In this document: positions 14,403-64,000 of the stretch, one piece after another | How positions within the stretch are numbered: the stretch's first letter is position 1 | Layout of the letters: the number at the start of each line of letters is the position of its first letter | IMG/VR virus record: IMGVR_UViG_3300012971_000018 | Location: 47,907 to 111,906 of that record | DNA: 64,000 nucleotides | Direction: 5' to 3' (one strand) | Origin: a virus | Made by a program: the position numbers and the translations under genes | The notes under the pieces: model-generated | Seen by the model: the letters and a program-made list of their open reading frames with translations, nothing else | Database searches by the model: none | Told to the model about the DNA's origin: nothing

Positions 14403-14602
14403 GGTTAGGTGGTGTAGGGCAAGGTGAGGTAGGGTTTGGTTCGGTAGGATGCGGTCTGGTACGGTTAGGTCGGGTCCGGTGCGGTCAGGTAAGGTAAGGC
14501 GCGGTGGGGTTAGGTCCGGTGGGGTAGGGTCGTGTCGGGTTGGGTTCGGTGAGGTCTGGCGAGGTCAGGTTGGGTTGGTTGGGGTATGGTTTGGTAAGGT
14601 AA
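14403..14602 (+). repeat. GGY-NN pentamer tract, 40 units (putative guide ncRNA)
   Basis: ggtta ggtgg tgtag ggcaa ggtga ... ggtaa ggtaa in unbroken 5-nt phase, filling the intergenic gap. Confidence 0.95.
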
Positions 14603-14612
14603 GGGTAATAGC

Positions 14613-21435: not shown

Positions 21436-21654
21436 GGTTCGGTGTGGCGAGGTGGGGTGAGGCAGGTCTGGTGAGGTTAGGTGGGATAGGGCGAGGTAAG
21501 GTCTGGTGGGGTGAGGTATGGTCCGGTACGGTGAGGCTGGGTAGGGTACGGTGAGGTTAGGTGGGATAGGGCGAGGTAGGGTTGGGTGCGGTATGGTGAG
21601 GCGAGGTTAGGTCCGGTCAGGTTCGGTGTGGTCCGGTAGGGTAAGGTTTGGTAT
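21436..21654 (+). repeat. GGY-NN pentamer tract, about 44 units (putative guide ncRNA)
   Basis: Starts 1 nt after the TerL stop; one 4-nt slip (ggca); its last unit overlaps the next ATG. Confidence 0.95.
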
Positions 21655-50362: not shown

Positions 50363-51460
50363 ATGAATCTGCAAGAGTCAATTGCCCAGTGGCGTGCCGA
50401 CCGGCCGCACCTGGAGGCCCGTGGCCTTAGCTTCGTTCCCGGAGCCGAGGTTGTCCGTTACATGCCGGACGAGTGGAAGCTTAATGCGGCCCTGGCGATG
50501 GATGCCATTCCGTTGCTGACGACCGATCCGAACGCCGGCATCCCCGTTATGCTTACGACCTCGATCGATCCCGAGGTCGTCCGCATCTTGTTCACTCCGA
50601 ACAAGGCCGCCATTATCTTCGGCGAGCGCAGGTCCGGGACTTGGCTCGACCAGACCCGCATCTTCCCGGTCGTCGAGCACGCTGGCGAGGTCTCCACCTA
50701 CGGCGACTACTCCGGCAACGGCGAGGCCCAGGTTAACACCGACTTCCCCAATCGCCAGGCATACCTGTTCCAGACCATTAAGGAGTACGGCGAGCTGGAG
50801 CTGGAGCGCATGGGCCTCGCGAAGCTTAACTGGGTCTCGGAGAAGGACCAGGCGGCGGCGCTTGTTATGAACAAGTACCTAAACCTGACCTACTTCTTCG
50901 GGGTCTCGGGGTTGCAGAACTACGGGCTGCTAAACGACCCCAACCTTAACGCCTCCATTACCCCCGCGACCAAGGCGTATGGCGGGACGAAGTGGATCGT
51001 GTCGGGCGTCGTGCAGGCCACCGCCAACGAGATATTTACCGACATCCAGTCCCTGTACCTTAAGCTGGTGCAGCAGACCAACGGTCTCGTGGCGGCCGAC
51101 TCGGCCCTGGTGCTCGCGATGTCTCCGCAGTCGGAGGTCGCGCTAACCACGACCAACACCTTCAACGTCAACGTGCACGACCTGCTTAAGAAGAACTTCC
51201 CGAAGTTGAAGGTCGAGACTGCGATCCAGTACGGTGCGATTAGCGCCTCCAACCCGCAGGGCATCGCGGCGGGCGAGTTCGCACAGCTTATCGCTGCCGA
51301 CATCGAGGGGCAGTCCACCGGCTGGTGCGCATTTAACGAGAAGATGCGCGCGCACCCGATTATTCGGGACCTCTCGTCGTTCCGCCAGAAGGTTACCGGC
51401 GGGACGTGGGGCACGATTATCCGCCAGCCGTTCGCGATCTCCAGCATTCTCGGTCTGTAG
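50363..51460 (+). CDS. Major capsid protein (DUF2184 type)
   Basis: NAGIP..LTT.IDP, GE..TYGDY, YGELELE, GLQNYGLLNDPNL, F.EKMRAH, GGTWG.II..P. Confidence 0.92.
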   Translation: MNLQESIAQWRADRPHLEARGLSFVPGAEVVRYMPDEWKLNAALAMDAIPLLTTDPNAGIPVMLTTSIDPEVVRILFTPNKAAIIFGERRSGTWLDQTRIFPVVEHAGEVSTYGDYSGNGEAQVNTDFPNRQAYLFQTIKEYGELELERMGLAKLNWVSEKDQAAALVMNKYLNLTYFFGVSGLQNYGLLNDPNLNASITPATKAYGGTKWIVSGVVQATANEIFTDIQSLYLKLVQQTNGLVAADSALVLAMSPQSEVALTTTNTFNVNVHDLLKKNFPKLKVETAIQYGAISASNPQGIAAGEFAQLIAADIEGQSTGWCAFNEKMRAHPIIRDLSSFRQKVTGGTWGTIIRQPFAISSILGL

Positions 51461-51986: not shown

Positions 51987-52381
51987 GGTGTGGTTCGGTT
52001 TGGTCGGGTAAGGTCCGGTGTGGCGAGGTGTGGTCAGGTCGGGTGCGGTACGGCTAGGTGTGGTAAGGTAAGGTCTGGTTGGGTATGGTCAGGTCGGGTC
52101 CGGTGGGGTCGGTTCAGGTAAGGTGGGATGCGGTATGGTTCGGTTTGGTAAGGTAGGGTGCGGCATGGTTCGGTCCGGTCGGGTTAGGTACGGTCCGGTA
52201 GTGTGAGGTGGGGTGTGGCATGGTTCGGTAGTGTTGGGTATGGTTCGGTTTTGTTAGGTTGGGCATGGTTGGGTCTGGTTAGGCGTGGTTCGGTTTGGTC
52301 CGGTTTGGTCGGGTCGGGTAAGGTCTGGTTAGGTGTGGTACGCCGTGGTACGGTGCGGTCCGGTGGGGTAGGGTATGGTGT
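51987..52381 (+). repeat. GGY-NN pentamer tract, 79 units (putative guide ncRNA)
   Basis: Longest tract; 5-nt phase unbroken over 395 nt. Confidence 0.95.
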
Positions 52382-52466: not shown

Positions 52467-52937
52467 ATGGGTGTAATCGCATCGTTTAGCTACGACACCT
52501 TTATCGCGCTATTCCCCCAATTCAACTATCTTAGCGGAGCCCAGGTCCAGTTCTACTGGAACATGGCGACGGGCTTCCACCGCAACGATGGTGGTGGTCC
52601 GGTTACCAACGTGTGCATGCAGGAGGAAATGCTCCAGCTTGTTACGGCGCACGTTATCCAGCTTTTCGCTCCCAAGCGCGATGGCCAGGGTCCGTCCGAG
52701 CTGGTCGGTCGGATTAACAACGCGAGCCAGGGTTCGGTCTCGGTCGGCTCCGAGATGCCGGGCGCTACGGCGTCGTCGGCATGGTGGCAGCAGACGCAGT
52801 ACGGCGCCGCCTACTGGGAGCTTAGCAAGCCGTTCCGCACGATGCGCTACATCCCCGGTCCGCCGCGGCCGACGGCGCCTTGGCCGATCGCCGGCACGAC
52901 GTTTATCGGCGACGGACCGTGGGGATGGGGACGCTAG
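52467..52937 (+). CDS. Head-tail adaptor (DUF4054)
   Basis: F.ALFPQF, L.LVTAH, VGRI..ASQGSVSV, WWQQTQYGAAYW. Confidence 0.88.
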   Translation: MGVIASFSYDTFIALFPQFNYLSGAQVQFYWNMATGFHRNDGGGPVTNVCMQEEMLQLVTAHVIQLFAPKRDGQGPSELVGRINNASQGSVSVGSEMPGATASSAWWQQTQYGAAYWELSKPFRTMRYIPGPPRPTAPWPIAGTTFIGDGPWGWGR

Positions 52938-54641: not shown

Positions 54642-55174
54642 TGGACGGCAAAACTGGTGGGGACGGTAGCTATGTGGGTTTGGCCCTGGGCGATACCGTT
54701 AGTTTTACAGGCGGAGCCGGTGGGACCTCCACGAACATCGTGGTCCCGGCCCCGGCCCAGCGCAAGTACCTTCCGACGCTCGCCGATCTCGTGGATCGGT
54801 TGACGATCGTCCAGCTAAAGGCGATCTTCCTGCCGGAGCACACCGAGGAATACGTCCAGGAGCGTGCCGATATCGAGCACGACATCGACCTAATTATCGA
54901 GGAGAAGGACATCCGGTTTACGGCCGCGGATGTGCATGCCATATGCATGATTATGCTTACCAACCGGTTTATCTGGGAAAACGAGTCCAAGGCCCGGGCC
55001 GGCGGCGACGAGCAGGACAAGCTGCTTAAGACCACCCATTCAATAAACGGCGTCCGCAACACCGCGAAGAACGCGCTGTCGCGGGCCGACAGTGGCCGTC
55101 GGGACTACAAAATTGACTCGCTGGCGGCCGACCTTCCTTCTGAATTCGGAAATTGGAGGGTGTTCGGGGTATAG
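54641..55174 (+). CDS. Helical hypothetical protein
   Basis: LADLVDRLTIVQLK...N..IWE.E...R pattern, seen in sugar-modification loci. Confidence 0.55.
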   Translation: MDGKTGGDGSYVGLALGDTVSFTGGAGGTSTNIVVPAPAQRKYLPTLADLVDRLTIVQLKAIFLPEHTEEYVQERADIEHDIDLIIEEKDIRFTAADVHAICMIMLTNRFIWENESKARAGGDEQDKLLKTTHSINGVRNTAKNALSRADSGRRDYKIDSLAADLPSEFGNWRVFGV

Positions 55175-55186
55175 CTTGGTTGTTGC

Positions 55187-55725
55187 GGTCCGGTCCGGTG
55201 GGGTGTGGTGGGGTCTGGTCCGGTTTGGTAAGGTGGCGTGGGGTGGGGTAGGGTTCGGTTCGGTATGGTTTGGTGAGGTGCGGTAAGGTAGGGCTTTATT
55301 TGTAGATTTTCTGCGGTGGGGTATGGTTCGGTCTGGTGAGGCGAGGTGCGGTAAGGTCGGGTGATGTGCGGTGGGGTATGGTCGGGTGGGGTCTGGTCCG
55401 GTATGGTAGGGCTTTATTTGTAGATTTTCTGCGGTCGGGTTAGGTGAGGTACGGTATGGTGCGGTCCGGTAAGGTTGGGTGTGGTCGGGTATGGTCGGGT
55501 GCCGTTCGGTGAGGTGTGGTGGAGTCGGGTTAGGTTGGGTCCGGTAAGGTGCGGTCTGGTAGGGCTTTATTTGTAGATTTTCTGCGGTGCGGTCTGGTAC
55601 GGCGAGGTAAGGCGAGGTAGGGTGCGGTCAGGTGACGTCGGGTGCGGTTCGGTCAGGTGCGGTAAGGTTTGGTCAGGTGCGGTATGGTGCGGTGCGGTGT
55701 TGTGAGGTAAGGTGTGGTAAGGTCC
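55187..55725 (+). ncRNA. Array of four GGY-NN units (21, 19, 26 and 28 pentamers) separated by an identical linker; putative guide-RNA array
   Basis: GGTAGGGC-TTTATTTGTAGATTTTCTGC occurs exactly three times (linkers 55295-55314, 55413-55432, 55566-55585). Confidence 0.85.
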
Positions 55726-55741
55726 TTAAAGGAGACGTAAC

Positions 55742-56071
55742 GTGGTAACTGTCTACGTACATATTGTTGGTACCACACCATTGCTGCACCGCCGGTTCGA
55801 CGATTTCTTCCCATCCAATTGGATTATCGGTGCGATCCGCGAGGCCGCCTCGAACCACAAGCTCCGCGGCTCGCGCAAATTGGCGAAGCTCTTGGTTCCG
55901 GTTGCGGTCCATGTTCCCACCGAGAACATCCAGCTCCTTACCGGTGATGGCAAATCGCACATTAAGGACTGTAATGTCGAGGTACTTATAGCGTATCGGC
56001 AGGGCCGACGGATTGTATTTTGGTCCGGTGTGTTAAGGGGTGGTCCGGCATGGTCGGGTTGGGTCGGGTAA
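55742..56071 (+). pseudogene. Internally deleted, truncated paralog of the RAMP-like gene
   Basis: Same AAGGAGACGTAACGTG start; FPS.WI.G.IREA.SNHKLRGSRK and L.GDGKS.IKD shared with 56151-56726; lacks about 34 aa and the whole C-terminal half. Confidence 0.8.
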
Positions 56072-56095
56072 GTTTGTTCAGGTTGGGTATGGCTC
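56022..56095 (+). repeat. Short degenerate GGY-NN tract
   Basis: About 14 units with several motif substitutions and one slip. Confidence 0.7.
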
Positions 56096-56150
56096 TTAAG
56101 TCAGTGTAAAGCAACGTAAGCAACGTAAACGCAAACTAAGGAGACGTAAC

Positions 56151-56726
56151 GTGCTAACTATCGACATCCAGCTTCTTGGTACCACTGCAATGCTGCACCA
56201 CAAGTTCGAGGCGGAGGCGGAGAACCCGAAGGCGACGAGGAACGTCGTCGTCGACCACGGCACCCCCCGCGAGCAGGCCGAGAAGGTCGTCTACCGCGAC
56301 GACAATGGTCTGTTCTACTTCCCGTCCAGTTGGATTACCGGTTCGATCCGGGAGGCCGGCTCGAACCACAAGCTCCGCGGCTCGCGCAAGTCCACCAAGT
56401 TCGTGGTCCCGGCGGCGATCCGCGTCGTCTCGCCGGACATCCCGCTCCTTAACGGCGACGGCAAGTCGCGCATTAAGGACTACGAGGTCGACAGCCGCCC
56501 GGTTACGATCCCGGCGACCAAGGGCCGGATTATGCGGCACCGCCCCCGGTTCGATTGCTGGTCGGCGAAGTTCCCCTTGGTTATTAACGACGACCTGCTG
56601 CCGGAGGAGTTCGTCCAGCAGTTGCTTACCGAGGCCGGCCAGTCGCAGGGCATCGGCGATTTCCGCCCCAACACCCGCGGCCCCTTCGGCTGCTTCCGGG
56701 TCGTTTCCTGGGCCAAGGCGAAGTAA
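56151..56726 (+). CDS. Standalone RAMP/Cas7-like RNA-binding protein (putative effector of the GGY-NN RNAs)
   Basis: N-terminal strand I.I.LLGTT.MLHH, YFPSSWITGSIREA helix, R.RPRF..W, C-terminal Gly-rich loop AG...GIGDFRP..GPFGCFRV; AAGGAG RBS; tracts on both sides. Confidence 0.75.
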   Translation: MLTIDIQLLGTTAMLHHKFEAEAENPKATRNVVVDHGTPREQAEKVVYRDDNGLFYFPSSWITGSIREAGSNHKLRGSRKSTKFVVPAAIRVVSPDIPLLNGDGKSRIKDYEVDSRPVTIPATKGRIMRHRPRFDCWSAKFPLVINDDLLPEEFVQQLLTEAGQSQGIGDFRPNTRGPFGCFRVVSWAKAK

Positions 56727-56759
56727 CGCGGCGGGCCTGTGCATTTAATAGGCCAGCAG

Positions 56760-56800
56760 AGGGCGGGGACTGTGTCCCCGCCTTCCCTCCATTCTGTTTT
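56760..56800 (+). terminator. GC-rich hairpin between the RAMP-like gene and the next tract
   Basis: GGCGGGGAC-TGT-GTCCCCGCC followed by a pyrimidine/T run. Confidence 0.55.
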
Positions 56801-56801
56801 T

Positions 56802-57036
56802 GGTCCGGTGTGGTCGGGTCCGGTGCGGTTGGGTTGGGTACGGTCTGGTTCGGTATGGTCAGGTCCGGTTGGGTACGGTATGGTTTGGTAAGGTTTGGTG
56901 CGGTAAGGTTCGGTTGGGTGCGGTCTGGTAGGGTCGGGTCCGGTATGGTCCGGTTCGGTGGGGTCCGGTTCGGTGGGGTAGGGTTCGGTGGGGTCCGGTT
57001 CGGTGGGGTAGGGTTTGGTTTGGTGAGGTTTGGCCG
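56802..57036 (+). repeat. GGY-NN pentamer tract, 47 units
   Basis: In-phase pentamers with an internal tandem duplication near the 3' end. Confidence 0.95.
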
Positions 57037-57131
57037 TGGCTTCCGGTATTTGGCGACAGATAATTGTCTTTGTGGTTATCCAATCGGTTCCGATCGCGCT
57101 CGCGTTGGTGCTAATCGGAATGTTGCGGTAG
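57036..57131 (+). CDS. 31-aa hydrophobic peptide between two tracts
   Basis: GTG..TAG, MASGIWRQIIVFVVIQSVPIALALVLIGMLR. Confidence 0.45.
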   Translation: MASGIWRQIIVFVVIQSVPIALALVLIGMLR

Positions 57132-57231
57132 GGTCGGGTAAGGTGCGGTCGGGTCAGGTTTGGTCTGGTGCGGCGAGGTGGGGTATGCCGAGGTCCGGTA
57201 TGGCGAGGTTAGGTCGGGTAAGGTAGGGTTT
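57127..57231 (+). repeat. GGY-NN pentamer tract, 21 units
   Basis: Ends ggtaa ggtag ggttt immediately before ATG 57232. Confidence 0.95.
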
Positions 57232-57792
57232 ATGGCTGATAAAACTCCGTACTTCCTCGCACTGTGCGAGGCGATGCGTCTGTTAAGCATGGACCCACGT
57301 ACGTTCTTCGTCGGCCAGGGCGTCGGATGCGCGGGCACGTTTATGACCGACACGCTGCGCGACGTCCCGAAAGAGAAGCTTCTCGAATTCCCGGTGGCCG
57401 AGGACTTGCAGCTCGGGTTTTGTACCGGGCTGTCGCTTAAGGGCTTCGTCCCGGTTAGCATCTTCCCGCGCTGGAACTTCCTCGTCTGCGCGGCGAACCA
57501 GTTGGTAAACCATCTCGACAAGCTGCCGTTGTTCTCGGACTACCATCCGAAGGTTATAATCCGGACCGCGGCGCCGTCGTCGGTACCGATCGACCCCGGT
57601 CCCCAGCACATGGGGAACTACTCGGTGGCGTTCCGGTCGATGCTGGAGACGGTCGACATCGTCGACCTGTACATGGCCGAGAGTATCGTCCCGGCCTATG
57701 CCGCGGCGCTCGCGTCCCGACGCTCGACGATCCTGGTGGAAAGCATGGCGGCCTATGGGTGGTCTACCCCGCCGTCGGGGGTTTCGCGATGA
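57232..57792 (+). CDS. TPP-dependent enzyme, E1-beta/transketolase pyrimidine-binding subunit
   Basis: FVGQGV, EFPVAEDLQLG..TGL, NQLVNHLDK, GPQH. Confidence 0.85.
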   Translation: MADKTPYFLALCEAMRLLSMDPRTFFVGQGVGCAGTFMTDTLRDVPKEKLLEFPVAEDLQLGFCTGLSLKGFVPVSIFPRWNFLVCAANQLVNHLDKLPLFSDYHPKVIIRTAAPSSVPIDPGPQHMGNYSVAFRSMLETVDIVDLYMAESIVPAYAAALASRRSTILVESMAAYGWSTPPSGVSR

Positions 57793-58433
57793 CCTCCGCG
57801 AGTAAGGACTATACCGCGGAACGGCTGCTGCGGTTCGAGCAGCAAATCGCCGACGAGTTCGAGACCGGAGCGATCCGGGCGCCTATCCATCTCGGCGGTG
57901 GGAACGAGGCGCAGCTTATCGACTACTTTAACACCAGCGTACAGGACTGGGACTGGGTACTCTGCTCGTGGCGGTCGCACTACCACTGCCTGCTTAAGGG
58001 CGTTCCGCCGGACGTGCTGCGCGCGGCTATTCGTGCCGGACGGTCGGTCTCCCTGTGCTTCCCGGACCAGCGGATACTGTCGTCTGGCATTGTCGGCGGG
58101 ACCGCTCCGATTGCGCTCGGGCTGGCATGGCCTGGGAACTACACAGCGCCTACGCCTACACCGATCCGGGTGCACTGCTTTATAGGGGACATGACCGAGA
58201 AGGCGGGCATCGTGCGCGAGGCGATGGAGTACGGTGCGCGCCACGGTCTTAGCATCGTCTGGATCGTCGAGGACAACGGGCTATCGGTCTGCACACCGAC
58301 GGATGTGTCGTGGGGACTTGGGAAAACGCCTGTTAACAGGCTGTCGTACAAGTACGAGCTTTCGCGGCCCCATGCCGGAACCGGCCGGTGGGTCGATTTT
58401 AGCAGAGGAAGCGCGAGCAAAACGGGGTTTTGA
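57789..58433 (+). CDS. TPP-dependent enzyme, E1-alpha subunit
   Basis: PIHLGGGNE, SWRSHYH.L.KG, SGIVGG, FIGD...EDNGLS TPP motif. Confidence 0.85.
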   Translation: MTSASKDYTAERLLRFEQQIADEFETGAIRAPIHLGGGNEAQLIDYFNTSVQDWDWVLCSWRSHYHCLLKGVPPDVLRAAIRAGRSVSLCFPDQRILSSGIVGGTAPIALGLAWPGNYTAPTPTPIRVHCFIGDMTEKAGIVREAMEYGARHGLSIVWIVEDNGLSVCTPTDVSWGLGKTPVNRLSYKYELSRPHAGTGRWVDFSRGSASKTGF

Positions 58434-58435
58434 AC

Positions 58436-58790
58436 GGTTCGGTGCGGTGTGGTACGGTAGGGTATGGTGCGGTTGGGTACGGTGCGGTAGGCTGCGGTAA
58501 GGTAAGGCTTTGTTTGTACCGTTTTAAGTTTTGGTCGGTTTTGGTCGGGTTCGGTAGGGTATGGTAAGGTCGGGTAAGGTCCGGTTAGGTCTGGTCAGGT
58601 GGGGTGGGGTTTGGTCCGGCGAGGTGAGGTGCGGTAAGGTAAGGCTTTAGTTTGTTTGCGTACGGTAAGGTGCGGTTTGGTTAGGTCTGGTAGGGTTGGG
58701 TAAGGTATGGTTTGGTTGTGTGTGGTTCGGTTCGGTAAGGTAGGGTGTGGTTCGGTCCGGTTAGGTAAGGCTTTAGTTGTTGCGTTCTCC
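58436..58790 (+). ncRNA. Array of three GGY-NN units (14, 22 and 21 pentamers) ending in related GGTAAGGCTTT linkers
   Basis: ggtaa-ggc-tttgtttgtac (ggc at 58506), ggtaa-ggc-tttagtttgtttgcg (58643), ggtaa-ggc-tttagttgttgcg (58769). Confidence 0.85.
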
Positions 58791-58933
58791 ATTCCCGGTT
58801 TCGCGTTTTGGAGATTTATCTGCCCTTAACGGCGGCTAAGGGTGCGCGTCCGAGCCCGATCCTGCCTGCTAAGGGTTTTACACAGACACGGACGGTCGCA
58901 GCCGGGGCCACAGCGCCCCGGCAGCTTCGTTAA

Positions 58934-59013
58934 GGTTGGGCGAGGTAAGGTGGGGTGGGGTAGTGTGTGGTCAGGTGTTGTTGGGTAGGGTACGGTTCGG
59001 TTTGGTAAGGTAG
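58934..59013 (+). repeat. GGY-NN pentamer tract, 16 units
   Basis: In-phase pentamers preceded by a GCCGGGGC...GCCCCGGC hairpin. Confidence 0.9.
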
Positions 59014-59048
59014 GTACGATCGTGCATCCACCATAAGGGAGATGCCAA

Positions 59049-59357
59049 ATGAATCCGGGGCTTACCGAAGAAGGTGCGAAGGCCGCAGTCGGCATTATCG
59101 ACGCCTTAAAGACGCAGCCGGCCACATTGGCTATGATCGTGGTATCGTTTGGCTTGCTCGGGTATACGTTCTACGAGGGCCACACATTCAACGCGCAGCG
59201 CGGAGAGATGTTCGGAAAGTTTCTTGAGCAGCAGAAAGAGATGCAGGTGCTCCTGTCGAAATGCGTGGTCCCCGGGCAGACGTTCCGACGGCCGACACTT
59301 CTACCCAAGCCGGCCATCGAGCGTATTCCAGAGCCTAAGCCAGAGACTAAGCCATGA
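59049..59357 (+). CDS. Single-TM membrane protein
   Basis: IIDALKTQP..LAMIVVSFGLLGYTFY hydrophobic segment. Confidence 0.65.
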   Translation: MNPGLTEEGAKAAVGIIDALKTQPATLAMIVVSFGLLGYTFYEGHTFNAQRGEMFGKFLEQQKEMQVLLSKCVVPGQTFRRPTLLPKPAIERIPEPKPETKP

Positions 59358-59578
59358 TTGTGTTGCACAAGGGCACGTTCGAGTATCTTAACCCGACCGA
59401 GATGCAGAAGACCAGGATGTCGGTCATGCGAGTCAACTTCCGGAACATGGCCGATGCCATTGCCGACAACGTTCCACCCGGCGCCGATCGCGATTATGCC
59501 CTGCGCCTGCTGCGCTCGGCGGCCAGTTGGGTTAACATTGCAATTACCCGGAAGGACGACGGAACTCCACGGGAATAG
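59354..59578 (+). CDS. Small helical-hairpin protein, Acb2/Tad1-like
   Basis: FEY.NPT..Q...M...R..F...A..I...VP.G.DR..AL..L..A..W.N.AI. Confidence 0.5.
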   Translation: MIVLHKGTFEYLNPTEMQKTRMSVMRVNFRNMADAIADNVPPGADRDYALRLLRSAASWVNIAITRKDDGTPRE

Positions 59579-59585
59579 TTAGGTG

Positions 59586-59745
59586 TGTGGGGTGGGGTTA
59601 GGTATGGTCAGGTCGGGTATGGTTGGGTTCGGTAAGGTAAGGTAGGGTTGGGTTTGGTTAGGTTAGGTCAGGTAGGGTTCGGTGCGGTTGGTTTTGGTGC
59701 GGTTTGGTCTGGTGGGGTCCGGTTCGGTTAGGTCAGGTAAGGTGT
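59586..59745 (+). repeat. GGY-NN pentamer tract, about 32 units
   Basis: In-phase pentamers filling the gap before the ColD-like gene. Confidence 0.95.
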
Positions 59746-60916
59746 GGGGGCTGCTGTGTCAAAGTCGTGGTGGTATCCGACGGCGTTTAGCTTATGGGGC
59801 GACGAGGAATACGAGGCAATCGGTCGGGTCGTACAGACGGATCGCTTTACGATGGGCGAAGAGGTCGCGGCTTTCGAGCGCGAGTTCGCCGACTACCACG
59901 GCATGAAACATGGGATTATGGTTAACTCTGGCTCTTCGGCCAATTTAATCATGGTCGCGGCACTGTTCGCTCTCGGCCGGTTACAGCGTGGCGACAAGGT
60001 GCTGGTCCCGGCGCTGGCTTGGTCGACGACCTACGCTCCCCTTATCCAGCATGGGCTCGATCTGGAGCTGGTCGACTGCGACGGGACGTGGTGCGCGTTC
60101 GACCCCGAGCCGCTCGACCACGAAGACATAAAGCTTATCGTCTCGGTCCCCATTCTCGGTGCGCCCCAGGTCTACGCCAATACGCAGCGGATGGTCGCGG
60201 ATACGTGGTGTATCCCGATGGTCGAGGACAACTGCGAGGCGCTTGGAGCTTCCGTCCATGGCCACCCGTGCGGGACGCGCGGGTTGATGAACTCCTTTAG
60301 CTTCTTCTACTCGCACCAGCTTAGCGCAATCGAAGGCGGGATGGTCCTAACCGACGACGACGACTGCGCCCGGATGTGTCGTATCCTGCGGGCGCACGGC
60401 TGGACCCGGGATGTCGAGGCCCCGAAGTCGTTCGACGAGGAATACAACTTTACGCACTTCGGATACAACGTCCGGCCGGTCGAGATGCACGCCGCGATAG
60501 CCCGCTGCCAGCTTAGGAAGCTAAAGGACTTCGTCGATGCCCGGCGCGCCAACCTTAAGTTCTTCCACTCCCGGCGAGACTACTATGGCCTCCCCATTAA
60601 GCTCCAGCAGGTTAAGGGTCTCTACACCTCCCCGTTCGCCCTTCCATTCATGGTGGAGACGTCCGAGCTACGGAACAAGGTGGTGGTGGCGCTCCGCGCC
60701 GCCGATATCGACTGTCGCCTGCCGACTGGCGGCTGTTTCCAGATGCATCCGTACGGTGCTCCTTGGCGCGACCAAGCGACGCCCAATGCGCGTCGGGTCC
60801 ACGAGACCGGACTATTCCTAGGCAATGCGCCGTTCGCAATCGAGGACAAGATCGACCGCGCCTGCCAGATTATCCAAGCAGCGTTAACCGGAACACGTAG
60901 GGAAAGTGTATCGTGA
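59744..60916 (+). CDS. DegT/DnrJ-family PLP enzyme, ColD-like NDP-4-keto-6-deoxyhexose 3-dehydratase
   Basis: FTMG..V..FE..FA, MVNSGSSANL, EDNCE, SFFYSHQ..AIEGGM (His at the usual Schiff-base Lys), GYNVRP; start 59744 or 59756. Confidence 0.85.
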   Translation: MGAAVSKSWWYPTAFSLWGDEEYEAIGRVVQTDRFTMGEEVAAFEREFADYHGMKHGIMVNSGSSANLIMVAALFALGRLQRGDKVLVPALAWSTTYAPLIQHGLDLELVDCDGTWCAFDPEPLDHEDIKLIVSVPILGAPQVYANTQRMVADTWCIPMVEDNCEALGASVHGHPCGTRGLMNSFSFFYSHQLSAIEGGMVLTDDDDCARMCRILRAHGWTRDVEAPKSFDEEYNFTHFGYNVRPVEMHAAIARCQLRKLKDFVDARRANLKFFHSRRDYYGLPIKLQQVKGLYTSPFALPFMVETSELRNKVVVALRAADIDCRLPTGGCFQMHPYGAPWRDQATPNARRVHETGLFLGNAPFAIEDKIDRACQIIQAALTGTRRESVS

Positions 60917-61851
60917 AAATCCTTGTAACAGGTGGCGCCGGATATCTGGGATCGGTTCTGGTCGAAGAGCTGTTGCGAACGGATCGGCTGTCGATCGACA
61001 AGGTTGTCGTGCTCGACAACTTCATGTACGGGCAGACCTCGCTCTCCCATCTGTGCTGGGACGACGTTCTGGAGATCGTCCGCGGCGACGCCCGACGGAT
61101 TACCAGGGACTTTGTCTCGGAGTTCGATGTCGTAATCCCGCTCGCGGCGATCGTCGGTGCACCGGCTTGCGATGCCAATATTACCGCGGCAATCTCGACC
61201 AATGCGGACGCTATCGAAGCGCTCGTCTGTAACATGAACCTCGACCAGCGGCTAATAATCCCGATCTCCAATTCCGGCTATGGGGTCGGGGAGAAGGGAG
61301 TGCTGCTAACGGAAAAGGCCCCGCTTAATCCGGTCTCGCTCTATGGCAAGAACAAGGTCTTCGCCGAGACAGCAGCGATGGAGCATGGCAACACGATTAG
61401 CCTCCGACTTGCCACCGTGTTTGGCATGTCGCCGCGGATGCGCATGGACCTGCTCGTTAACGATTTCGTCTGGCGTGCGGTCCACGATAAGGCGGTGGTG
61501 CTGTTCGAGGCAGACTTCCGGCGCAACTACATCCACATCCGCGACGTCGCCCGCACCGTAATCCACTCCCTATTCTATTGGCAGGAGATGAAGAACAATA
61601 TCTACAACGTCGGCCTGTCGTCCGCCAATCTATCGAAGCGGCAGCTTTGCCAGGAGATAAAGAAGCAGGTCGAGGGCTTTGTCTTTGTGGAGGCGGAGGT
61701 CGGCGAGGACCCGGACAAGCGGGACTACGTCGTCTCCAATGCGAAGCTGGAAGCGACCGGATGGTCCCCAAGATGGAGCCTTTCCGCCGGCATCGCGGAG
61801 CTTGTTAAGGGCTACCGAATGTTTCGGAAGGTCCAGTACGGCAACATCTAG
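60913..61851 (+). CDS. NAD-dependent epimerase/dehydratase
   Basis: ILVTGGAGYLG, LAAIVG, YGKNK, RLATVFG, RNYIHIRD. Confidence 0.92.
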   Translation: MKILVTGGAGYLGSVLVEELLRTDRLSIDKVVVLDNFMYGQTSLSHLCWDDVLEIVRGDARRITRDFVSEFDVVIPLAAIVGAPACDANITAAISTNADAIEALVCNMNLDQRLIIPISNSGYGVGEKGVLLTEKAPLNPVSLYGKNKVFAETAAMEHGNTISLRLATVFGMSPRMRMDLLVNDFVWRAVHDKAVVLFEADFRRNYIHIRDVARTVIHSLFYWQEMKNNIYNVGLSSANLSKRQLCQEIKKQVEGFVFVEAEVGEDPDKRDYVVSNAKLEATGWSPRWSLSAGIAELVKGYRMFRKVQYGNI

Positions 61852-61860
61852 GAGAAAATT

Positions 61861-62091
61861 ATGGTGCTTCCACTCCACCTCGACGCCGACACGCTTCCGA
61901 TCATTTTGGCCAGGATCGGTACGCCGCTTAAGGGCGATGCCCAGCTTAACATGCTGGCCGACATGGGGGCGCGTCCGATGGACATTCTGTCCAATGCCGT
62001 CGTTAGCGCGGCAGCGACGGGCGGTGGATTGTCGGCGAGCGACGCTACCGCTATTACCAACGAATTGACCAAGCGCAGGCACGGCAAGTAA
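61861..62091 (+). CDS. Hypothetical protein
   Basis: AGGAG RBS; ends NELTKRRHGK. Confidence 0.65.
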   Translation: MVLPLHLDADTLPIILARIGTPLKGDAQLNMLADMGARPMDILSNAVVSAAATGGGLSASDATAITNELTKRRHGK

Positions 62092-62105
62092 AAGGTATAA
62101 TTTAA

Positions 62106-62300
62106 GGCGAGGTCTGGTACGGTCGGGTCGGGTAAGGTCAGGTGGGGTAAGGTAGGGTAGGGTGCGGTAAGGTGGTGTCCGGTGGGGTAGGGTCGGGTAA
62201 GGTGGGGTTTGGTAAGGTTAGGTGTGGTCTGGTGGGGTCGGGTCCGGTGCGGTGATGTAGGGTTCGGTTGGGTAGGGTGAGGTTAGGTCGGGTGAGGTAT
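62106..62300 (+). repeat. GGY-NN pentamer tract, 39 units
   Basis: In-phase pentamers; the last unit overlaps ATG 62299. Confidence 0.95.
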
Positions 62301-64000
62301 GGACCTTCTAATTATCAATCCAGGTGCCGTCCATGGGATTTACGGTCCGCTCGGGGATACGCTGGTCGCGGTCGAGCCCCCGCTGTGGTGCCGGTTAATC
62401 GCCGGCTATGTCCGTGCCCGGGGCTGCGACGTTCGTATCCACGACATGGAGGCCCACCGTACGTCGCCGGCCGCGGTCGCCCGGCTAGTCCAGCTTTCCA
62501 GCCCGACGCTCGTCTGCGTCGCGGTCTACGGCCACCAGCCTTCCGCCTCGACCCAGCAGATGGTCGGGGCCGGCGCGGTCTGCAAGGCGATTAAGAAGCT
62601 GCTTCCGAGCCAGCCGATCGTTATGGTTGGCGGCCATCCGTCGGCGCTTCCGGAGTACACGCTCCAGACCGAGGCGGTCGACTACGTTTGCGCGGGCGAG
62701 GGTCCGGCAACCGTTCTGGGGCTGCTCGATACCGATAACAACGAAGCAATCCCCGGATTGGTCTGGCGCCGCGGGACTACGATCGTAAAGAACCCGCCCG
62801 CGCCGCTAATCGAGGACCTGGGAGAACTGCATGGCGAGGCTTGGGACCTCCTGCCGATGCACCTCTATCGTCCGCACAATTGGCAGTGCTTTGGCGATAT
62901 GGCTCGTCGGGACCAGCCTTACGCTTCGATCTACACCTCCCTTAGCTGTCCCTATCGGTGTCTCGAAGGCAACGTAAAGGTCAATACGATCTATGGAAAT
63001 ATTCCGATCAAGACGCTGGCCGAATGTTTTGGCGATGCGGGCGTTCCCATTTACACTTACGATCCGGCGAGCGGCCGGGCATTTATCGCCGATGGCGTTA
63101 AGATTAGGAAGTACGGTAACAAGGAACAGCTCGTCCGTGTGCATTTCGACGATGGTAGCCACATCGACTGTACCCCCGACCATCGGTTCTTGCAATTTAA
63201 GTGGAGCAACGGTAGGTCGAACAGTTCCGAATGGGAGTGCGAGGCGCAACATCTCGCCCCCGGATCGCACGTACGCGCACTGCGGACGGAGCAACATCTG
63301 CTAGGTCGTTACTATATATCTTGGTCTCGTATGGGCAGAGCCTTTCGCTCCAGAATGGTTGCCGAGTATCTGTTGGGTCGAAGACTTAGACGGACAGAGC
63401 CGGTACACCACTTAGACCACGATATATCGAACGACCATCCGAGCAATCTACAGATTTGCGGATCGGCAAAGGAGCATTTTAGGCTCCATCCTGAAATATC
63501 TGCACGGATGCGTTCCGATAATCCAACCAAGAATGGCATGTCGGCCAAGTGGCGCGAGAGTATAGTGCGGGCCAATCGTGGCAAAGTACGGTCGCCCGAG
63601 GCGCGTATGCGTTATCGGTTATCCAAATTAGGCAAGAAAAATCCCAATTATCGACACGGTCGTCGAACCGGCGGGTCGTCCCGTCTAGAGGTCAACCATC
63701 GTGTAGCGTACGTCGAGCCGCTGGCCGAGCGCGGGGATGTCTATTGTTTGACTGTGCCGGAAACTGGTTGGTTCTATGCCAATAATGTTCTCGTTAAGAA
63801 TTGCAACTTCTGCTGCATCGCTGCGCCCTTCCTGGGAAGCAATCGGTATCGAATGCGAAGCCCGGTTGCGGTTGTGGACGAGATTGTCCGGCTCTATTGG
63901 CAGCACAAGGTCCGGACGTTCAAGATCGTGGACGAGATGTTTGTCCTTAACGAGAAGCACTACACCGCGATCTGCAACGGTCTAATCGCCTCCGGGATTG
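62299..64000 (+). CDS. Cobalamin-binding radical SAM enzyme, intein-containing, 3'-truncated (absent from the ORF track)
   Basis: Manual translation MDLLIINPG..EPPLW..IAGY, GGHPSALPE, GEG, TSLSCPYR[intein]CNFCC, RSP..VVDEI, KIVDEMF. Confidence 0.88.
   Translation, partial: MDLLIINPGAVHGIYGPLGDTLVAVEPPLWCRLIAGYVRARGCDVRIHDMEAHRTSPAAVARLVQLSSPTLVCVAVYGHQPSASTQQMVGAGAVCKAIKKLLPSQPIVMVGGHPSALPEYTLQTEAVDYVCAGEGPATVLGLLDTDNNEAIPGLVWRRGTTIVKNPPAPLIEDLGELHGEAWDLLPMHLYRPHNWQCFGDMARRDQPYASIYTSLSCPYRCLEGNVKVNTIYGNIPIKTLAECFGDAGVPIYTYDPASGRAFIADGVKIRKYGNKEQLVRVHFDDGSHIDCTPDHRFLQFKWSNGRSNSSEWECEAQHLAPGSHVRALRTEQHLLGRYYISWSRMGRAFRSRMVAEYLLGRRLRRTEPVHHLDHDISNDHPSNLQICGSAKEHFRLHPEISARMRSDNPTKNGMSAKWRESIVRANRGKVRSPEARMRYRLSKLGKKNPNYRHGRRTGGSSRLEVNHRVAYVEPLAERGDVYCLTVPETGWFYANNVLVKNCNFCCIAAPFLGSNRYRMRSPVAVVDEIVRLYWQHKVRTFKIVDEMFVLNEKHYTAICNGLIASGI
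62959..63801 (+). mobile_element. Intein with HNH endonuclease splitting the radical SAM CxxxCxxC motif
   Basis: Begins CLEGNV, block B CTPDH, VHHLDHDISNDHPSNL, ends DVYCLTV...FYANNVLVKN followed by Cys. Confidence 0.9.

Follow-up and report, generated by a model that had tools for sequence, protein, structure and literature searches.

The two preprints of 2026 that first described VIPR, a CRISPR-related silencing system of phages (bioRxiv 10.64898/2026.04.26.720920 and 10.64898/2026.04.26.720927), have so far dealt with two type II systems, those of SUSP1 and P. fulva. The system they describe is built around Vipr, a small phage-encoded RAMP protein that polymerises on guide RNAs (vrRNAs) composed of GGY/NN repeats. 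One Vipr protomer occupies each repeat, with the GGY sequestered and the NN exposed, and the NN pairs read double-stranded DNA with every third base skipped, in what is called the 1-nt-skip code. The resulting complex silences rival phages and satellites. In SUSP1 the repeat tracts, each with an invariant 3' tail, give discrete RNAs of ~100 nt that are loaded with Vipr and guide DNA binding.

The same two preprints (10.64898/2026.04.26.720920 and 10.64898/2026.04.26.720927) indicate that several vrRNAs may stand together in one array, that the units have 9-16 repeats, and that an accessory gene, vap, is typically but not universally found beside vipr. The published systems do not target themselves, and the criterion for a natural target is a match of at least 80% of the NN positions. 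Other array layouts are also depicted there, including staggered or overlapping arrays, arrays interspersed with hammerheads, and loci with a single vrRNA (figs S18-S20), and a tree divides the systems into types I-VII.

Here we describe a locus from an uncultured phage, IMG/VR record IMGVR_UViG_3300012971_000018, which is 111,906 bp in length, has 123-bp terminal repeats and is scored complete; no DNA similarity to GenBank phages was found. The window we analysed is the 64,000-nt stretch from 47,907 to 111,906 of that record, and all coordinates below are those of the window. The segment at 55187-55725 is very likely an array of four guide RNAs (vrRNAs) belonging to a phage VIPR system, working by the mechanism set out further below. 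This assignment is made because of the anatomy of the array, the homology of a neighbouring protein to Vipr, the family-wide linkage of vipr with such arrays, and the rapid turnover of units among close relatives.

The anatomy was first noticed in a sequence-only reading of the window, which had described an identical 20-nt linker occurring three times, always after GGT-AG-GGC, and separating units of 21, 19, 26 and 28 pentamers whose NN strings all differ. Both observations hold: the linker copies lie at 55295, 55413 and 55566, and a phase-aware scan recovers the four units with their different NN strings (Table 1). The 20-mer, TTTATTTGTAGATTTTCTGC, has these three exact copies, all on the + strand, and no further copy in the 64-kb window even when up to 3 mismatches are allowed. 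The number of copies expected is 0, and none of 100 dinucleotide-preserving shuffles contained a match. Directly 5' of every copy stands GGTAGGGC, so that behind units 1-3 there is an invariant 3' extension of the kind known from VIPR, formed by GGTAGGGC and the exact 20-mer. Since GGC and the linker together measure 23 nt, the 5-nt register is moved by +3 at each linker. Each tract includes one or two degenerate pentamers that begin CGT, TGT or AGT instead of GGT, and GGC occurs in a few others. The linker-to-linker lengths are 128, 118 and 153 nt, and unit 4 runs for 140 nt up to AAGGAG, the ribosome-binding site of the following ORF. The predicted linker-to-linker RNAs of 118-153 nt agree with the earlier expectation of unit RNAs of about 100-160 nt.

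Table 1. Features of the segmented array, of vipr and of the other GGY-NN arrays (window coordinates).
Feature	Position	Strand	Basis
vrRNA unit 1, 21 GGY-NN pentamers, terminus GGTAAGGTAG	55187..55291	+	direct reading, phase-aware scan
Invariant tail/linker 1, GGC + exact 20-mer (55295-55314), weak 5-7 bp hairpin GUAGA-UUU-UCUGC	55292..55314	+	
vrRNA unit 2, 19 pentamers	55315..55409	+	phase-aware scan
Invariant tail/linker 2, 20-mer 55413-55432	55410..55432	+	
vrRNA unit 3, 26 pentamers	55433..55562	+	phase-aware scan
Invariant tail/linker 3, 20-mer 55566-55585	55563..55585	+	
vrRNA unit 4, 28 pentamers, no linker behind it	55586..55725	+	
Truncated vipr paralogue, 109 aa, internal deletion	55742..56071	+	
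vipr, 191-aa RAMP/Cas7-like protein, predicted repeat binder (one protomer per pentamer by homology)	56151..56726	+	
Array, 41 pentamers, between clamp-loader-like gene and ATG 14613, internal GGTAAGGTAAGGC terminal-type motif at unit 18-20	14403..14607	+	
Array, 38 pentamers, directly behind large terminase gene	21465..21654	+	
Longest array, 79 pentamers, linker-less, head-gene module	51987..52381	+	
Array downstream of vipr, 46 pentamers, uninterrupted	56802..57031	+	
Array, 21 pentamers, terminus directly at ATG 57232	57127..57231	+	
Second segmented array, three units (14, 22, 21 pentamers), each with GGTAAGGC-TTT end, diverged linkers	58436..58768	+	
Array, 16 pentamers	58934..59013	+	
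Array, 31 pentamers, terminus at GTG start 59744	59591..59745	+	
Array, 39 pentamers, terminus at ATG 62299	62106..62300	+	

The linker itself is a simple element. Its hairpin of 5-7 bp is marginal, with a folding energy of -2.1 kcal/mol by itself, and with the flanks included the z-scores are -0.5 to -1.9, no clear gain over shuffles. Folding against shuffles revealed no stable conserved fold in the linker or tail resembling the SUSP1 pseudoknot; unlike the pseudoknotted tail of SUSP1, the constant element here is 20 nt long, U-rich and weakly folded. Searches for the exact linker gave 0 matches in the JGI metagenomes and 5 in IMG/VR, all of them chance occurrences in the coding DNA of array-less phages of 30-35% GC.

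A U-rich element with a small hairpin could also be read as transcriptional punctuation, with the hairpin and U-run as terminator and the following RNA started from a promoter inside or behind the linker; in the available text of the two preprints (10.64898/2026.04.26.720920 and 10.64898/2026.04.26.720927) the way in which the ends of SUSP1 vrRNAs arise is not stated. However, the U-run lies mostly 5' of the hairpin and not 3' of it, neither a sigma-70-like promoter nor an intrinsic-terminator-like site occurs in 55187-55725 (the consensus may not be that of the host), and the units of some relatives are spaced by 2 nt, which leaves no space for a promoter. A scan of 54900-57400 for promoters and terminators gave matches outside the array at chance level. 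We consider punctuation of this sort unlikely. Because the array has no promoter- or terminator-like site, the processing of a longer transcript is favoured over unit-by-unit transcription, with the reservation that the host may use a different type of promoter.

The segmented array is one of many. The whole record has 16 GGY-NN tracts on the + strand and 0 on the - strand, which are distributed over 11 intergenic sites, all within the window, and this differs from SUSP1, whose arrays flank vipr. The sites span 48 kb among clamp-loader, terminase, head and sugar-pathway genes; the longest array, for example, sits between the major head gene (50363-51460) and a virion structural gene at 52467. 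Frequently an array begins a few bases past a stop codon and finishes at the next start. The GGY-NN repeats are near vipr and on its strand, as in the published VIPR systems, with the segmented array ending 426 nt upstream of vipr and the next arrays beginning 76 nt downstream of it. As a positive control, the pentamer scan was applied to 50 kb of SUSP1, where it flagged only the published VIPR locus, in the two long intergenic gaps around vipr.

Over all arrays there are 472 pentamers, of which 420 have GGT, 22 have GGC and 30 are degenerate, and all 16 NN dinucleotides are present at 3-10% each. The degenerate pentamers mostly retain xGT, the first G being the least constrained base, and GGCGA is a recurring pentamer, since NN is GA after GGC in 13 of 22 cases (all arrays, 14403-62300). 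Arrays in the window mostly end in AA-AA or AA-AG, which in the segmented arrays is followed by GGC-TTT. The tracts without linkers reach lengths of 39-79 pentamers; by analogy with the published layouts, those of 79, 46, 41 and 39 pentamers may belong to the contiguous kind of VIPR array.

This composition bears on what the tracts are not. A coding repeat is ruled out, since with a period of 5 every frame meets stop codons. Slippage can produce short-period tandem repeats, and the tracts could in principle be a non-functional microsatellite of that origin or an artefact of assembly, but whole-unit copying by slippage homogenises, whereas here the GGY is fixed and the 16 NN are nearly even. 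The strand-specificity of the repeat, the three exact 20-nt linkers and the association with vipr, seen at 77 of the 81 independent metagenomic loci, also speak against it, and we give this explanation close to no credence. The sequence-only reading had favoured a guide array over a slippage microsatellite, and that preference is supported by the Vipr homology and by the family-wide association of vipr with GGY-NN repeats on the same strand. Two further candidates were dropped: a TRAP-like attenuation site, in view of the Vipr homology, and a G-quadruplex DNA element, which is unsupported and leaves the link to vipr unexplained.

Several genes in this part of the genome deserve a brief description. 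From 57160 to 64000 the arrays are interleaved with genes of a sugar- or cofactor-type pathway, which include split halves of a TPP enzyme (transketolase pyrimidine-binding and E1 domains), a DegT-family aminotransferase and an NAD epimerase/dehydratase. A B12-binding enzyme in the same region is interrupted by an intein with HNH-like matches. Between two of the arrays, a 74-aa ORF (59354-59578) weakly resembles the Acb2/Tad1 hairpin domain (PF24729, E 8e-4, under the curated cut-off), and by this match it may be an anti-CBASS or anti-Thoeris sponge.

The neighbouring protein that the earlier reading had called RAMP-like turns out to belong to the Vipr family proper. The 191-aa protein (P0001) has no Pfam match, but it and the SUSP1 Vipr gene both fall into phrog_4652. 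When an alignment of 30 homologues was compared with SUSP1 Vipr by hhalign, the two matched over the full length with a probability of 97.8% (E 8e-13), and the sole match of the family profile among PDB sequences was the SUSP1 Vipr protein (36pp, E 1.1e-10). The AlphaFold model of the protein (pLDDT 86) finds its top PDB folds among the Csm3/Cas7 subunits of type III complexes (E 5e-8, TM 0.56-0.61). The residue numbers given in the preprint land exactly on H17, R138, D177, W178 and R179 of the SUSP1 phrog_4652 ORF, and in the alignment these GGY contacts correspond to H17, R131, D170, F171 and R172 here. The aromatic position is F in this phage, W in SUSP1 and Y in P. fulva; the other four, H17, R131, D170 and R172, vary little or not at all across the 30 homologues. 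By these sequence and profile comparisons, the 191-aa gene is a Vipr homologue.

The locus is thus like the type II VIPR of SUSP1, which consists of Vipr, vrRNAs and Vap1, in having a phage-encoded RAMP protein of ~190 aa with the GGY-contact residues kept, in having GGY-NN tandem pentamers beside vipr on the same strand, with variable units and an invariant end, and in that no self-target was found under the 1-nt-skip rule. There are clear differences as well. The identity of the two Vipr proteins is only ~27% in the profile alignment. The segmented units have 19-28 repeats here and 9-16 in SUSP1. A homologue of vap1, which in SUSP1 is phrog_5926, was not found here; no flanking ORF matched a DNA-binding or nuclease vap by Pfam, PHROG or PADLOC, and none of the genes flanking vipr has a homologue beside vipr in the 81 related loci.

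A further difference from SUSP1 is the presence of a truncated copy of vipr just upstream of the intact gene. This paralogue matches vipr in its ribosome-binding site and start region, lacks residues ~20-56 (about 100 nt) and the C-terminal G-loop, and continues into a degenerate GGY-NN remnant (56022-56090). From its sequence, the truncated paralogue with its decayed tract resembles what is left of a tandem duplication that took in both array and gene.

It is worth considering how far the likeness to CRISPR goes, because the earlier reading had called the segmentation CRISPR-like. In logic and in protein ancestry the description stands. The best structural match of the Vipr model is the class 1 CRISPR-Cas backbone (Csm3/Cas7; type III-A, PDB 9ash and 6ifn); as in class 1 systems, a helical protein filament would form on the guide RNA, here by homology; and constant and variable segments alternate in an array that is probably processed into unit guides. 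In membership the description fails. Cas1 (PF01867) is absent from the complete 111.9-kb genome, with control genomes positive, and there is no Cas6, no Cas10 or Cas5 partner and no direct repeat of 25-40 nt. A CRISPR array has direct repeats of ~23-50 nt and unique contiguous spacers of similar size; here the sole long exact repeat is the 20-mer in its three copies, and the stretches of 95-130 nt between the 20-mers are themselves 5-nt periodic. The guides of the two systems also differ in kind: the class 1 CRISPR-Cas period is 6 nt with one base flipped, whereas that of VIPR is 5 nt with three bases sequestered, and a CRISPR spacer is contiguous whereas VIPR uses a gapped guide code.

Comparison with relatives places the array in a large family. 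In a metagenomic protein collection, 1069 relatives of the 191-aa protein were found at E <= 1e-3, and a set of 81 related IMG/VR loci (1.03 Mb) was used for comparison, with arrays counted at 8 or more repeats. Arrays lie on the vipr strand in 78 of the 81 loci and within 1.5 kb of vipr in 77, and 265 arrays were counted in the 1.03 Mb of related loci versus 2 in 1.95 Mb of unrelated viral DNA. This Vipr clade often has long units. The nearest relatives that have been binned to genomes come from MAGs of Chthoniobacterales (60-62% identity), Opitutaceae, Phycisphaerae, Hyphomicrobium and Ardenticatenales; judged by sequence, these are hints to the host range of the clade and to nothing beyond it.

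Many relatives have variable units that are split by an invariant linker of their own lineage at the inter-unit position, which in the other VIPR layouts described in the preprints (10.64898/2026.04.26.720920 and 10.64898/2026.04.26.720927) is likewise where vrRNAs are delimited. The linker is a U-rich 22-mer in L060, whose Vipr is 65% identical to that of this phage, and a 22-nt hairpin with a U-run in L029, where the units have 31, 25, 24, 13 and 21 repeats. It is AT-rich and 14 nt long in L022, a structured element of 26-55 nt in L056, L012 and L069, and a bare 2-nt offset in L039-L061. The last repeats before a unit boundary in relatives usually read GGYAAGGYA[A/G]. Conserved structured inter-unit elements of ~50-63 nt, with GC hairpins and a CCAGTGC-TTTT motif, were also seen at L012:10630-11125 and L014:5366-5935. 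The structured linkers of L012 and L014 have no Rfam match, and as far as their sequences go these might be processing elements or ribozymes of a type new to Rfam. Unlike the hammerhead-interspersed VIPR arrays, neither the arrays of the window nor the structured linkers of relatives contain an Rfam ribozyme; the window's arrays gave no match to any Rfam RNA family.

The contents of the arrays change rapidly. In the neighbouring L039-L061 clade the vipr DNA is 96-98.6% identical, yet the members have only 0-3 of their 3-5 units in common, and so the gain and loss of units among related phages that was looked for after the earlier reading was indeed seen. The units of this clade differ by whole-repeat gains and losses, and the common last unit is conserved. 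Whole-record scans found a single array locus in most relatives. The exceptions include the 188-kb record of L084 (G008), with at least 9 array sites from 68.9 to 167.6 kb, of which one is on the other strand, and the record of L005 (G001), with arrays at four sites.

The dispersal of the arrays in this phage raises the possibility of a role mainly in cis, as Vipr-binding sites in polycistronic late mRNAs that would stabilise the message or tune the translation of the next gene. The arrays do occupy 11 intergenic gaps on the coding strand, and several end at or near the next start codon, often through a Shine-Dalgarno-like GGTAAGGT or GGTGAGGT. But the units inside the segmented arrays (55187-55725 and 58436-58768) have no gene 3' of them and still carry the same terminal motif, a plain binding site has no need of hypervariable NN, and in most relatives arrays occur only beside vipr. 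We regard a mainly cis role as quite improbable. More improbable still is that the arrays serve as decoys to absorb Vipr from competing phages. The very large repeat load, about 470 pentamers, would suit a decoy, but the phage's own vipr is intact with all the GGY-contact residues present, and the array is segmented with constant ends as bona fide guides are.

If the units are guides, they should have targets, and these were sought by the published 1-nt-skip rule with exact gapped seeds, each search using a single seed of 7-10 repeat units. Under this rule no self-target was found: the maximum in the phage's own genome was 10 of 14 units, compared with 7-9 in shuffles. One candidate, in which the 62106 tract would specify the final codons of the upstream gene (62059-62150), was rejected as chance, with 6 of 10 units matching and shuffles reaching that level in 45% of cases; counting a non-unit AA raises the match to 7 of 10, and such a likeness to the adjoining sequence was seen in no other array. 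No targets were found in the 1.08 Mb of related loci or in the total of 2.6 Mb of fetched DNA.

In IMG/VR, the seed of unit 1 gave 24 matches with a best extension of 10/21, that of unit 2 gave 37 with a best extension of 11/19, and that of unit 3 (repeat units 1-9, exact) gave 0. The exact seeds of unit 4 gave at least 119 matches (units 1-7) and 32 (units 8-15), and the extension never exceeded 12/28. A second unit 3 seed (repeat units 9-18) had 2 matches in the JGI metagenomes, neither extending past the seed, and a unit 4 seed (repeat units 8-17) had 0 in GTDB genome contigs. A 16-unit pattern with up to 3 mismatches had 0 matches in 401 genomes from the order that contains the nearest MAG relatives, the one to which a Chthoniobacteraceae MAG belongs. 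Because the searches used single seeds, these negatives are no evidence that targets do not exist. The NN composition best fits codon positions 1-2, sense or antisense, in 11 of the 16 arrays, which weakly suggests targets in coding regions.

The array as a VIPR guide array would work in the following way. It would be transcribed on the + strand, presumably along with its neighbours. Vipr would polymerise along each tract with one protomer per pentamer, holding the GGY and exposing the NN, by analogy with the published complexes. The exposed NN would read double-stranded DNA with every third base skipped, so that each unit would specify and repress a site of 57-84 bp, one that probably lies within the coding DNA of a competing phage or mobile element. 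The invariant element, GGTAGGGC with the 20-nt U-rich linker, would form the constant end of each guide, and we infer that the linker could serve as a 3' tail, a 5' handle or both. Since the register breaks by +3 at the linker, we propose that a filament cannot cross from one unit to the next, which would leave the linker as a short, protein-free and weakly folded stretch where the precursor may be cut or trimmed. The outcome would be four RNAs of about 118-155 nt.

A minor possibility is that VIPR guides, both here and in some large relatives (among them the one with the 188-kb record, L084), have moved out of the vipr locus into the spacers between late genes and have a dual role there, as guides and as cis-regulatory elements. 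They would then fill nearly all the non-coding space of the coding strand, in many cases providing the following gene with its ribosome-binding site, and late polycistronic mRNAs would yield them as by-products. By coating or excising the tracts between cistrons, Vipr might also cut, stabilise or translationally tune these mRNAs. Such guides would be two to three times the length of those studied so far.

The kind of system is already known, that of VIPR. What this uncultured 112-kb phage adds is a distant Vipr clade whose metagenomic relatives number more than 1000, the nearest genome-binned ones being in MAGs of Verrucomicrobiota and Planctomycetota. Its distinctive traits are guides of 19-28 repeats, a simple unstructured linker, and a guide load that is among the largest seen and is spread through the late operons. 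The phage offers a natural test case for how the ends of vrRNAs are made, for the maximum length of a Vipr filament, for the need for a vap gene, and for the cis action of arrays embedded in mRNA.
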